Shown here in pieces: positions 17,238-59,187 of a stretch of DNA of 64,000 nt; position 1 is the stretch's first letter; each line of letters starts with the position of its first letter. Both the position numbers and the translations under genes were made by a program. A model generated the notes under the pieces. The model was not told where the DNA came from. It searched no databases and worked only from the letters and a program-made list of their open reading frames with translations. The stretch lies in assembly GCA_001776975.1 (NCBI GenBank), contig MFCS01000025.1, forward strand, positions 37,407-101,406, written 5' to 3'. The DNA comes from Candidatus Daviesbacteria bacterium RIFCSPHIGHO2_01_FULL_41_45 (lineage in GTDB: Bacteria > Patescibacteriota > Microgenomatia > Daviesbacterales > UBA10151).

Positions 17238-18584
17238 TCAGTTAATTTTGTTGACCTTTGATCCATCAAGTGTATCTAAAACCTCAAAGCCTAAATCTTT
17301 AATTTGTTTCCTAAGTTGATCTGATTTATGGTAATCACTATTCTTTCTAGCCTCTTCCCGTTGGCTAACTAACTCCATAACATTTTCTGGAACATCAATT
17401 TTTTTAGCAACAAACTCTGCTAACCCTAGTCCCAAAACCTGGTCCATCTTGAGCAGCGACCCTGCTTTAGCTGAGGTTGGATAATCAGACTTTACTAATT
17501 CCCATAGTATAGCCAGAGCCTGCGCTGTATTTAGATCATTATCTAAGGCTTCTGTGAATCTCTGCTCGTGCTCTGCACAACCAACTACCGGCTGATCCCA
17601 ATTTCTGATAGTCTCCCTTAAGTTATTCAAAGCGTTTTGAGCAGCAGTTAAACTCTCCCAGGTAAAATTTAATTTATCTCGGTAATGAGCTGTTAAAAAT
17701 AGATACCTTAAGGCTAAAGGATCAATCCCTTTATTCTCAATATCAACCAGGGTATAAAAATTACCCAGAGATTTACTCATCTTAGCCCCATCAACTAACA
17801 GATGTTCACCGTGCACCCAATACCTAACAAAGGATTTCCCACTTACTCCCTCACTTTGAGCTATCTCGTTTTCATGATGAGGAAATAATAAATCTACCCC
17901 ACCAGCATGGATATCAATTGTATCCCCCAAAAATTGTTGAGACATCACTGAACACTCGATATGCCAACCTGGCCTACCCTTACCCCAAGGTGAATCCCAA
18001 CCCACCTCACTACCTTTAACCATTTTCCACAAAGCAAAATCCTGAACGTCATCTTTACTATACTCATCAGACAAAATTCTGGTGCCACTTTTGATCTGCG
18101 ATTTATCTACTCCCGATAATTTTCCGTAATTTGCAAATTTTGAAACATCAAAATATACTGATCCGTCCGCTTCCTGATATGCCAGACCTTTTCCTAGCAA
18201 AACTTCAATAAACTTAATCATCTCACTAACATGTTCTGTAGCTTTTGGATAATTATTGGCGGGCAAAATATTTAATTTTGAGATATCATCAAAAAAAACT
18301 TTACTGAATTTTTCGCTTAACTCAGAAGGTGAAATCCCCATCTCGGCGGATCTTTTTATAATCTTGTCGTCTACATCCGTTAAATTTTCTATAAACTGGA
18401 CTTGAAAATTATTAAATTCTAAAACCCTTTTTAAAAGATCATACAAAACAAAACTTCTTAAGTTTCCAATATGGACATGGTCATATACAGTTGGTCCACA
18501 ACCATAAAATGTTACATTGGCAGGATTTAAAGGCTTAAACTCCTCAATGGTTTTAGTCAGAGAGTTAAAAATCCGCAAATTCAC
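17238..18584 (-). CDS. cysS: Cysteine--tRNA ligase
   Basis: CGPTVY, HIGN, GRPGWHIECS, KMSKS. Confidence 0.97.
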   Translation of the reverse strand: MNLRIFNSLTKTIEEFKPLNPANVTFYGCGPTVYDHVHIGNLRSFVLYDLLKRVLEFNNFQVQFIENLTDVDDKIIKRSAEMGISPSELSEKFSKVFFDDISKLNILPANNYPKATEHVSEMIKFIEVLLGKGLAYQEADGSVYFDVSKFANYGKLSGVDKSQIKSGTRILSDEYSKDDVQDFALWKMVKGSEVGWDSPWGKGRPGWHIECSVMSQQFLGDTIDIHAGGVDLLFPHHENEIAQSEGVSGKSFVRYWVHGEHLLVDGAKMSKSLGNFYTLVDIENKGIDPLALRYLFLTAHYRDKLNFTWESLTAAQNALNNLRETIRNWDQPVVGCAEHEQRFTEALDNDLNTAQALAILWELVKSDYPTSAKAGSLLKMDQVLGLGLAEFVAKKIDVPENVMELVSQREEARKNSDYHKSDQLRKQIKDLGFEVLDTLDGSKVNKIN

Positions 18585-18668
18585 ATCTCTAGTATACGAT
18601 AATTATTCTGATAGACAAGTGCGCCAAAAAATTTGAAGTAATCCAATTAGTCTGGTAGTATTCAGGCT

Positions 18669-56299: not shown

Positions 56300-56351
56300 A
56301 TTCTGAGGCTAAATTAACATGTTTTGCCCCTTAAGACAACCCCTTTTTAGC

Positions 56352-56380
56352 TTGACTAAGAAGATGCCTTTTGCTATTCT
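56352..56380 (+). promoter_or_regulatory. Sigma70 promoter of ncRNA
   Basis: TTGACT-17 bp-TATTCT with extended TG. Confidence 0.75.
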
Positions 56381-56387
56381 GGTCTAA

Positions 56388-56543
56388 GTCTGCTTGGCAC
56401 GTTTAAATTTGAGGGTTTATTTTCCTCCATCGTTGATCTACAACGGGAGCTAAAAAGGGGTTCCGTCGTCGCTAAAGCTACGATGGACCAGGCACCCACT
56501 TGTTTTCTTAGGGGAAAAGACCTCAAATCACGTCTGAGCAGAC
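56388..56543 (+). ncRNA. Rod-shaped ncRNA, 6S RNA-like candidate
   Basis: 5'/3' pairing GTCTGCTT/GAGCAGAC, ATTTGAGG/CCTCAAAT, TTTCCTC/GGGGAAA; has its own promoter and terminator. Confidence 0.6.
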
Positions 56544-56611: not shown

Positions 56612-56668
56612 GTCGAGATAGCTCAGTGCGAACGCTAGTGAGCGCGAGATATCGAGGCTGTACATCAT
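56612..56668 (+). repeat. Partial 5' duplication of tRNA-Thr(TGT) plus small palindrome-like insert
   Basis: GTCGAGATAGCTCAGT (56612) versus GCCGAGATAGCTCAGT (56669); CGAACGCTAGTGAGCG between them. Confidence 0.7.
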
Positions 56669-57115: not shown

Positions 57116-57670
57116 ATGTCTGAGATCCCAGATCCTTTAACTGGTCCTTCTACAGAACAGGTAAATCCTTCAACCGATAATCCCCGAGAATTTATGGATA
57201 AATTTTATGAGAGTAATATTTATCTTAAAGCTAAACAAGACTTTTTTATAGACAAAACCTTACCTGACGATGTAACTGATAAAGAAAAACAGGAGGCATT
57301 TGAACAAAGTGAAGATGCCAAGTTTGCTATGGTAGATTTTGCCAGAAAAGCATTAACATTCAAATATAATCCCGACTTATTTCCAGCTCCTTCAGCACAC
57401 GCACTTAGTACATACATTGAGAGTGTGAAAGATATGATGAAGATGTCCAGATCTGGTGTCAGCAGTACTGAAATAGAAAGCTTGGATTCACTAAGATCTA
57501 TTTATCACAATACAGCCGCTCAGACTCTGGTTGAGGACAAAGTTGTACGGTCTATCAAACTAGGCAGATCTCTTGCTAGATTGGTATTAGTTGATAAGGG
57601 TCTGGATACATTCGAGAATGCCACTAAAAAAGATATTGATCAAATCAAACGCAAGTTTGGAGCAGTATAG
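57116..57670 (+). CDS. Hypothetical protein
   Basis: 184-aa helical ORF starting 1 nt after rpmG. Confidence 0.7.
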   Translation: MSEIPDPLTGPSTEQVNPSTDNPREFMDKFYESNIYLKAKQDFFIDKTLPDDVTDKEKQEAFEQSEDAKFAMVDFARKALTFKYNPDLFPAPSAHALSTYIESVKDMMKMSRSGVSSTEIESLDSLRSIYHNTAAQTLVEDKVVRSIKLGRSLARLVLVDKGLDTFENATKKDIDQIKRKFGAV

Positions 57671-57797: not shown

Positions 57798-57954
57798 CAG
57801 GTTTCAGGTTCTCCAATTTATTGGAGGTTCTGAAAACTGCTGGGAATGAATATTAAGCGAAACCTCCCTGAGGGTTTACATAATTTCGAACTTGTGAGAA
57901 ATTACAGGATCGTTTGCCGAAGGCAAAGGTAGCCCTCTTCCTTCCAGGCCTGCA
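57783..57954. mobile_element. Miniature element or scar at tRNA-Trp 3' end, flanked by 17-bp direct repeats
   Basis: TTCCTTCCAGGCCTGCA at 57783-57799 and 57938-57954; interior consists of stacked hairpins. Confidence 0.65.
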
Positions 57955-57980: not shown

Positions 57981-58009
57981 TTGACTCAGAGGATCCAATA
58001 GTCTAGAAT
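57981..58009 (+). promoter_or_regulatory. Sigma70 promoter facing the 3' end of the nuclease gene
   Basis: TTGACT-17 bp-TAGAAT. Confidence 0.75.
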
Positions 58010-58016
58010 CTAAATT

Positions 58017-58079
58017 GAGGCAGAGGGCTTGACCCTGACCCCATTATTGCACCTGCATAAAGTGGAAGATGCCTCACCA
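58017..58079 (+). ncRNA. Candidate 63-nt tRNA-like small RNA
   Basis: Starts at the expected +1; closing stem GAGGCA/TGCCTC followed by ACCA; two internal hairpins. Confidence 0.45.
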
Positions 58080-58454
58080 AAGTACCATCAGAGAGTAAAA
58101 ATATTTCTGTCCTTCAAAGTTCTTTGAGCGGACCACGACTTTTATTTTTCTGCCTCCAATATATCCACTAAAAGCAAAGTAATGTCCAATTTTATCTTTT
58201 CTGTGTTCTTGAAAAGTTTGAGCAGTTTCCAACATCTTTCTGGCTAACGGTAAAATAGCAAACCTTTCCATTTGCTCAACCTTGGTTCGTTTATGAGGCG
58301 GATTTATTAAGTGATCCCAGCCTGATCTAGTTACTAATATTTTCTGCTTAAAAGCTGGTGTTGGTTTTTCATGGCCCGACCAATAACTAAAATAATACAT
58401 CTTAGCTTTTCTTCTCGCTCTATCAAACTTACTAACTCTTTTACCTTTGGGCAT
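58074..58454 (-). CDS. BECR/RelE-fold nuclease-like protein (PBECR/LPD3-like)
   Basis: PAF...I.VT..GWDHL...RT..EQ.ERF..L..A...IKVVVR...KYFYSL pattern; leaderless TATAAT-6-ATG. Confidence 0.6.
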   Translation of the reverse strand: MPKGKRVSKFDRARRKAKMYYFSYWSGHEKPTPAFKQKILVTRSGWDHLINPPHKRTKVEQMERFAILPLARKMLETAQTFQEHRKDKIGHYFAFSGYIGGRKIKVVVRSKNFEGQKYFYSLMVLW

Positions 58455-58617
58455 ATCTGGATTATATCTAAATTTCGAGAAATCGAATAGACTTCTGGTA
58501 AACTAAGTTAGGGAATTTGATATTTTCAGTCCATTTAGAAGTTCGGAAATCATCAACTAGTCCCTGCAAAATAGTCCGATAGTTAACAAAACAAATCATT
58601 ATGGTATAATTCTTCTC

Positions 58618-59187
58618 ATGGAAGTGGAATACCAGTACCCACAAGTCCAATCTCAAACTAGTCATGCTTCTAAGGACGCAGTTCAACTGGCTGCTTTTAG
58701 AGAGTTAGTGCATGGCCTTCAAATGATGTCCTCTAATTTAAAGCCGTTACTTTATAATTTTGCCTGGGCAGCAGGACAAATTGCAGGAGACCCAGATGCT
58801 CCAGCAAAAATAAGAGGAATGATGGAATTTGCAGCTGCTTACCATCAGTTTGGTCTAGAAACCGCAATGGATGCAATCGGAGACAATAATGGTGTTCGTG
58901 TAGATATTATGTCCGGACAAGATGGTAGAGATATAAGTTACAGACCAGGTATATTAGTTGGACTAGTTGGGGTTGAGCATTCTTTAGCAACAAGGAGAGT
59001 AGATTTTGATGGAGTAGCAATGATAGAAGATAACAGAGGAAGGGATAGGTTTATAGCAGTTACAATAAGTCCAAACGGATCTACTCAACTACATCGTGAG
59101 CAATATGATTTTCACAAACCTGATCTAATTTCCGATAAGCCAATAGAAGAAATTTTTCCTCCTACAACTAGATGTAAACCACTTTAA
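58618..59187 (+). CDS. Hypothetical protein
   Basis: 189-aa ORF with TGGTATAAT 7 nt before the ATG. Confidence 0.7.
   Translation: MEVEYQYPQVQSQTSHASKDAVQLAAFRELVHGLQMMSSNLKPLLYNFAWAAGQIAGDPDAPAKIRGMMEFAAAYHQFGLETAMDAIGDNNGVRVDIMSGQDGRDISYRPGILVGLVGVEHSLATRRVDFDGVAMIEDNRGRDRFIAVTISPNGSTQLHREQYDFHKPDLISDKPIEEIFPPTTRCKPL

Follow-up and report, generated by a model that had tools for sequence, protein, structure and literature searches.

A candidate type III-like toxin-antitoxin family in Patescibacteria: a BECR-fold protein and a convergent three-way-junction RNA

A gene for a small basic protein of predicted BECR fold was found linked to a structured RNA of about 60 nt, predicted to be transcribed towards it from the opposite strand. 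The two are probably an uncatalogued type III-like toxin-antitoxin (TA) family, in which a BECR RNase would be countered by direct binding of an RNA antitoxin. The pair lies in a window of 64,000 nucleotides of contig MFCS01000025.1 (assembly GCA_001776975.1, Candidatus Daviesbacteria bacterium RIFCSPHIGHO2_01_FULL_41_45). The gene keeps its RNA in contexts that have nothing else in common, among them inteins. In the broad sense of type III TA, a structured RNA is linked to a toxin gene and no protein antitoxin is present, as was found here. An RNA antitoxin had been named in the original prediction and, judged from the sequences compared below, is kept as the most likely role of the RNA.

Results

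The locus in the window

Features of the locus are listed in Table 1. The elements of the original prediction (promoter, 63-nt fold, convergent 126-aa gene) were all recovered in place, as was the overlap of the RNA 3' end with the Trp and stop codons of the gene: the stop codon TGA of the minus-strand ORF is the reverse complement of 58074-58076, next to the CCA. Folded as a three-way junction, 58017-58079 gave -20.1 kcal/mol (z -2.13; 8 of 200 shuffles were equally good), and its opposite strand gave z +0.42. In the second 'hairpin' of this segment, stems of 5 bp and 3 bp are separated by an A-rich internal loop. Promoter-like sites are abundant around the locus (24 in 6 kb vs 16.4 ± 3.7 in shuffles), so the window promoter is weak evidence by itself. 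No terminator was found behind the window RNA. RNA covariance model R1 scores the window at 43.6 bits, the window being part of its seed. Taken singly, the locus gives a modest, suggestive signal; comparison with homologues carries that signal far beyond chance.

Table 1. Features of the cassette, in window coordinates
Feature	Position	Strand	Basis
Predicted sigma-70 promoter of the small RNA: TTGACT, 17 nt, TAGAAT	57981..58009	+	Score 10/12
Promoter boxes TTGACT and TAGAAT	57981-57986; 58004-58009	+	Read in sequence
Three-way-junction small RNA, ~61 nt, predicted antitoxin, inferred ends	58016..58076	+	Fold, covariation, CM
P1 5' arm, partner 58070-58076	58016..58022	+	8/8 P1 pairs with double changes, 96% of cells paired
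Hairpin P2 of 4 bp, with a loop that differs across the family	58024..58036	+	4/4 pairs with double changes, 100% paired
P3 stem with A-rich internal loop and short P4 hairpin	58041..58065	+	4/5 pairs with double changes
J3/1 purine-rich junction strand, AAGA in the window; candidate protein-contact site	58066..58069	+	Conservation
CCA, reverse complement of the last Trp codon TGG	58077..58079	+	Not conserved among the RNAs
LPD3/PBECR-like protein of 126 aa, very basic and of predicted BECR fold; predicted RNase toxin	58074..58454	-	ORF and structure comparison
TATAAT -10 box, 6 nt ahead of ATG; predicted leaderless promoter belonging to the protein gene	58461..58466	-	Sequence

The flanking ORFs (57116-57670, 184 aa; 58618-59187, 189 aa) had no Pfam match. 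An intergenic stretch at 56338-56462 holds a perfect 15-nt inverted repeat, its arms 95 nt apart, and a promoter-like site resembling the RNA promoter.

Fold and conservation of the protein

AlphaFold and Foldseek had been suggested as a check on the protein. The AlphaFold model (pLDDT 92) has a helix followed by a meandering beta sheet, as in solved BECR toxins, and its top Foldseek match was CdiA-CT Kp342 (6cp9; E 0.011, prob 1.0). VIA-align ranked the same entry first (Z 5.9, rmsd 3.5, 93 aligned), with entries for BrnT, RelE and ParE below it; about the next nine ranks contained eight more BECR entries. These structural scores are middling (Z under 8) yet consistent across methods. ESM Atlas neighbours gave TM 0.76-0.83 to clusters auto-named PBECR2/3-like. 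Pfam LPD3 (PF18798) was matched at E 4.5e-4 and 20.8 bits, below its gathering cut-off of 27 bits; homologues scored 17-25 bits, and one large protein 31 bits. The BECR-fold, PBECR/LPD3-like assignment made at the outset is thus supported by Foldseek, VIA-align, the ESM Atlas and the sub-threshold LPD3 match.

The site described for PBECR domains is a His plus a Ser/Thr (PMC5512222). H48 was present in 160 of 160 domains and S/T121 in 156; in the model, H48 lies within helix 43-50 and S121 within strand 117-125. Among 116 diverse sequences, Y21, G45, H48, R56, R64, F119 and S121 are each at least 90% conserved. The domain has a net charge of +19 in the window protein (family median +13). The protein is predicted to be an RNase; its closest solved relative, Kp342, cuts tRNA-Ile at the acceptor end, after C72 (PMC9086364).

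Close homologues comprised 36 matches at 50-90% identity, and the names on homologues were Daviesbacteria, Microgenomates and Patescibacteria; together with the genes flanking the locus, these names put the window's genome in Patescibacteria. A profile search yielded 502 representatives at E ≤0.001. PADLOC (run on 4 proteins) and NCBIfam returned no family for the BECR proteins.

Promoter linkage and covariation of the RNA

A total of 210 loci were collected and reduced to 176 non-redundant ones; 13 with partial domains or short flanks were removed, and the remainder was divided into 150 core and 13 distal loci. An initial promoter-led detector was too lax (promoter in 162/163) and was replaced by a strict test, in which a promoter-blind junction finder is followed by a strict promoter filter. 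A strict promoter stood 3-11 nt ahead of the closing stem at 101 of the 150 core loci (83 at 5-6 nt), compared with 0/150 on the gene's strand and 0/119 at other ORF ends. By protein clusters at 50% identity, promoter and junction were found in 29 of 37; 78 of the 150 loci belong to a single cluster, which is noted against the preferred explanation. The junction finder alone is loose (142/150 on the antisense strand, 91/150 on the sense strand and 42/119 in controls, some of the hits being terminator folds), and weight was therefore put on the strict promoter test, covariation and covariance models.

Two RNA types, A and B, were distinguished. In sequence-only alignments of RNAs picked by the authors for diversity, with a structure also named by them and the choice biased towards that structure, type A (23 sequences) had 92.8% of cells paired, 134 double changes and 16/17 pairs covarying, and type B (27 sequences) had 84% paired, 59 double changes and 15/16 pairs covarying. 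When pairing partners were slid, 33-44% of type A cells were paired. Models from these alignments recover held-out loci, and in a further held-out test the RNA was present in 5 of 6 newly fetched loci; in the sixth the gene is truncated at residue 66. Another check suggested initially, a search of the 3' flanks of homologues, thus returned both a conserved promoter and a covarying RNA.

Common to both types are a long P1, a short P2 hairpin, an A-rich loop in P3, a junction G-C pair and a J3/1 strand rich in purines. This last strand is the most conserved unpaired part of the RNA: it reads R-A-G-R in type A, with A and G at 100% (43 RNAs), and is 91-99% purine in type B (101 RNAs). The A ahead of the P3 3' arm is also conserved (90% in type A, 96-97% in type B). 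The type A and type B models do not detect each other's RNAs, so a common origin rests on architecture and linkage.

Across 66 type B loci (300 pairs), identity was 0.90 for the RNA, 0.72 for the protein, 0.28 at four-fold sites and 0.34 in the promoter spacer. This conservation counts for an RNA antitoxin, because antisense action needs no such conservation. The RNA ends more than 10 nt outside the ORF in 90 of 101 type B loci, and a terminator-like hairpin follows in 77. The ORF is overlapped by 26 of 40 type A RNAs vs 1 of 101 of type B, and a U-tract or terminator follows the RNA in 23/43 type A and 77/101 type B cases.

Some loci count against the preferred explanation. At L045, a seemingly intact homologue with His48, no RNA was detectable by these methods; L151, L156, L161 and L162 have the promoter and a variant fold that scores poorly in both models. 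Rfam 15, including its DUF3800 and abiF motifs, gave no match to the window RNA or to RNAs from 35 further sources.

The distal homologues, matched by hhalign at a probability of 97.5%, also have a promoter, in their case with a bulged hairpin that is simpler than the junction. This convergent hairpin RNA marks a distal BECR subfamily (L164-L173, L208-L210), in which L171 and L208 seem to contain additional copies.

The CCA end and neighbouring tRNA genes

A CCA occurs close to the RNA end in 5/43 type A and 9/101 type B RNAs, and ARAGORN and Rfam made no tRNA call on the window RNA. A tRNA or tRNA-like identity, understood as a cloverleaf with a conserved 3' CCA, is not supported. The last residue of the protein varies among homologues (W, L, S, K, R), and the caveat entered with the original prediction, that the CCA could be an accident of the Trp codon, is right; the mimicry of tRNA through a CCA end that the same prediction had proposed is not upheld. 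Nor is the suggested link to the adjacent tRNA-Trp: a tRNA gene lies within ~700 nt at 14 of 150 loci, and such proximity is incidental.

Upstream of the promoter, a 155-bp stretch with stable hairpins (57799-57954; z -3.4 for 57799-57940) runs from the end of tRNA-Trp to a 17-nt sequence that repeats this end exactly. Contigs C1 and C6 have related pieces, the one on C6 following a tRNA-Arg and closing with a copy of the tRNA end. The stretch is a separate small tRNA-targeting repeat. The 17-nt duplicate was considered as an attachment site of the cassette and rejected, since it stops at 57954, short of the promoter, and on C6 a similar element lies behind tRNA-Arg. A 14-15-nt copy of the 5' part of tRNA-Thr was also seen at 56614-56628, 57 nt upstream of that tRNA.

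Genomic contexts, inteins and orphan RNAs

The gene was present in 39 of 401 genomes of the phylum (33/401 of the class). Neighbours of the homologues comprised 271 proteins in 253 clusters, the largest of 3, and no recurring protein partner or antitoxin was found among them, in keeping with the earlier remark that the gene has no protein antitoxin. A -10 box lies 3-9 nt before the ATG in 85/123 homologues vs 19/253 internal ATGs; by a looser test it is also frequent in the window's genome (185/473 ORFs). From these sequence features the protein gene likely has its own leaderless promoter. Searches of viral contigs by protein, by type B alignment and by two RNA patterns found no copies, and the gene family was not found in phage records.

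The BECR domain also occurs between intein halves in giant proteins. All eight intein-type domains keep H48 and the Ser/Thr, and an antisense RNA lies inside the open frame in 8/8, six of these RNAs being in the model seed and two (L149, L204) outside it. Among 11 intein-type loci, a long open frame extends over the RNA and promoter region in 10, and 7 pass the strict promoter test. The eight domains form one clade (support 0.977) in an analysis of 95 rows from which most of the large type B cluster was excluded.

A giant MerR-headed protein of more than 5000 aa (L211:4804-19998) has about six inteins, three with a BECR-RNA cassette. Two other inteins of this giant ORF of genome G452 (L211:10404-10594 and 18420-18610) carry an insert that by eye is RNase H/DUF3800-like and had no Pfam or NCBIfam match. 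Behind these inserts an antisense promoter and a folded RNA run through the open frame, which is the layout of the BECR cassette with an unrelated protein.

RNAs were also found apart from an intact gene, in a pattern of decay in which they outlast it. In G670 the gene is internally deleted and the adjoining RNA intact. G796 (100% complete) has an orphan window-type RNA with promoter and U-tract, and in G044 (96% complete) a single promoter precedes a tandem of two different type B RNAs; neither genome gave a gene match. The tandem pair is possibly an immunity array. These counts are lower bounds, since the whole-genome RNA search misses true copies (that of G000 was missed). A match in G029 (E 0.028) was judged to be chance.

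The G796 RNA (L257:1500-1565) is flanked by a direct repeat of ~30 nt and faces a gene that by eye resembles a GIY-YIG nuclease. The G044 tandem (L246:1446-1561) adjoins a gene judged Fic-like from its motif. At L069, the BECR gene 3' end and its RNA join an rpoB-like start in frame, which is probably a chimera of the assembly.

Discussion

Proposed mechanism

The cassette would be a self-contained TA unit of ~490 bp. The ~60-nt three-way-junction RNA, predicted to be made from its own promoter on the opposite strand, would bind the predicted BECR-fold RNase directly and keep it inactive. The RNA may be produced in excess, given a strong promoter, and stabilised by its closing stem, with the basic protein recognising the purine-rich junction. 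Should transcription cease or the DNA be lost, the RNase would be freed, leading to addiction or abortive defence.

Alternative explanations

The RNA could instead be a cofactor of the bound protein, serving an RNA-protein nuclease as its sensor, activator or specificity subunit. Linkage and conservation would suit any one-to-one RNA-protein complex, and in inteins the domain takes the place of the homing endonuclease, where one might look for a role in mobility. We consider this unlikely, since the RNA has no variable guide-like segment (its variable unpaired parts are short loops, and it is near-invariant within subfamilies), and the orphan RNAs and the deleted gene beside an intact RNA suit an antidote better. 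BECR enzymes of known function, as far as the available text of PMC9086364 describes them, also act without RNA partners. Type I-like control is slightly less probable still: the convergent transcript would silence the toxin mRNA by pairing with its 3' end, with RNase III decay, or by transcription collision, and the fold would serve only to stabilise the RNA. The convergent layout and the stop-codon overlap at 26/40 type A loci agree with it, as do the RNase III and Rho encoded in the genome and the missing terminator behind the window RNA, which would allow a long antisense transcript. It is opposed by RNA conservation far above that of synonymous sites, by the conserved unpaired junction bases, by the type B RNAs lying outside the ORF (90/101) and by orphan RNAs that have no cis target; within inteins, antisense decay would presumably silence the giant host gene. 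The original prediction had allowed for the 5' end of an antisense transcript; simple antisense action is disfavoured, but has some probability in the window's subfamily, where the RNA overlaps the stop codon.

That the RNA is a tRNA decoy with a CCA end is very improbable. The closest solved fold cuts tRNA-Ile after C72 (PMC9086364), P1 is of acceptor-stem size and a CCA follows it in the window; against this, the CCA is not conserved, no tRNA was called, P1 is free to vary at its open end, unlike the conserved junction, and many RNAs run into a U-tract or terminator (23/43; 77/101). A shape mimic without CCA falls under the RNA-antitoxin explanation. There is an equally slight chance of a cis element on the mRNA strand or in the DNA, such as a branched terminator, self-cleavage site or mobility signal. 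The reverse complement does lie at the mRNA 3' end, and a loose three-way fold was found on the mRNA strand at 91/150 loci; however, promoter coupling is antisense-only (101 vs 0), one-sided changes are G-U on the antisense strand, type B has separate terminators between gene and element, and in inteins the element is in mid-ORF.

Comparison with known systems

Like the BECR-RNA pair, ToxIN, CptIN and TenpIN combine an endoribonuclease toxin with a small structured RNA that has a conserved A-rich element, and lack a protein antitoxin; their RNA consists of pseudoknot repeats in tandem, which lie upstream on the toxin's strand, share its promoter and are closed off by a terminator (PMC12283969). 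The BECR cassette differs in that its single, nested and covarying three-way junction lies downstream, is encoded on the opposite strand and has a separate promoter. The ToxN fold also differs from the BECR fold. No ToxIN-type upstream tandem repeat was found at the window locus, which does not have the ToxIN/CptIN/TenpIN layout. In the type I systems txpA/RatA and bsrG/SR4, a convergent small RNA runs over the toxin 3' end; most toxins of this kind are small hydrophobic peptides, and their RNAs work through pairing. The window's subfamily resembles them in its 3' overlap, which is absent from most type B loci.

AbiF and its abiF-motif RNA (RCd22) likewise tie a structured RNA to a toxic protein gene, and the RNA neutralises AbiF by direct binding, in cis and in trans (10.1101/2025.04.15.648962). 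By analogy, this is the best functional precedent for the BECR-RNA pair. It differs in that the Abi_2/AbiF protein is linked to Cas13 and the RNA is upstream and co-transcribed (10.1101/2025.04.15.648962); the BECR-linked RNAs had no match to Rfam RF03085 (abiF motif). In genomic signature the BECR-RNA pair also resembles the DUF3800-I to -XI, drum and skipping-rope motifs, which are terminated structured RNAs beside one nuclease-fold gene family, on either strand and with several unlike structures per family, and their function is described as unexplained (PMC5737381). Their partner is RNase H-fold DUF3800 (PMC10910872), not BECR, and no Rfam match to those families was obtained.

In fold, His plus Ser/Thr site, and solo and fused forms, the proteins resemble the PBECR/LPD3 domains of polyvalent proteins (PMC5512222) and the Colicin-like BECR group that includes CdiA-CT Kp342 (10.64898/2026.08.28.747851). 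The partners described in the available text of these two sources are immunity proteins, and the main text of the 2026 BECR preprint uses 'noncoding' or 'non-coding' 0 times (10.64898/2026.08.28.747851). The window family is chromosomal in Patescibacteria, with no copy found in viral contigs or phages. In the literature searched, largely the main text of openly available papers, neither an RNA partner for a BECR/LPD3 gene nor RNase-RNA cassettes in inteins were reported.

Wider reading and significance

A broader, tentative reading, which we regard as somewhat doubtful, joins these observations into a layer of portable cassettes across Patescibacteria, made up of RNases with convergent RNA antidotes, inteins, orphan immunity and the DUF3800 parallel. 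The BECR fold, so far seen with protein antitoxins, would here be tamed by several unlike small RNAs. The compact cassette would ride in inteins in place of the homing endonuclease, so that the intein would become addictive or its splicing would set the toxin free. Hosts might keep orphan RNAs, even in tandem, as immunity. The RNase H/DUF3800-like inserts of sister inteins, with their identical layout, would suggest that the DUF3800 RNA motifs are antitoxins as well.

The family adds to the catalogue a structured RNA that covaries strongly and is clearly tied to one protein. Should this RNA prove to be an antitoxin, it would inhibit a nuclease of the BECR/RelE superfamily, a kind of RNA of which the literature searched contained no example, and the convergent, separately promoted, single-copy arrangement would be a new type III layout. 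Inteins carrying a TA pair in place of the homing endonuclease would, if confirmed, represent a new survival strategy, and the parallel with the DUF3800 RNAs makes an open question from 2017 testable. With a protein of 126 aa and an RNA of 61 nt, the system is small and offers a route into the defence and selfish elements of Patescibacteria.
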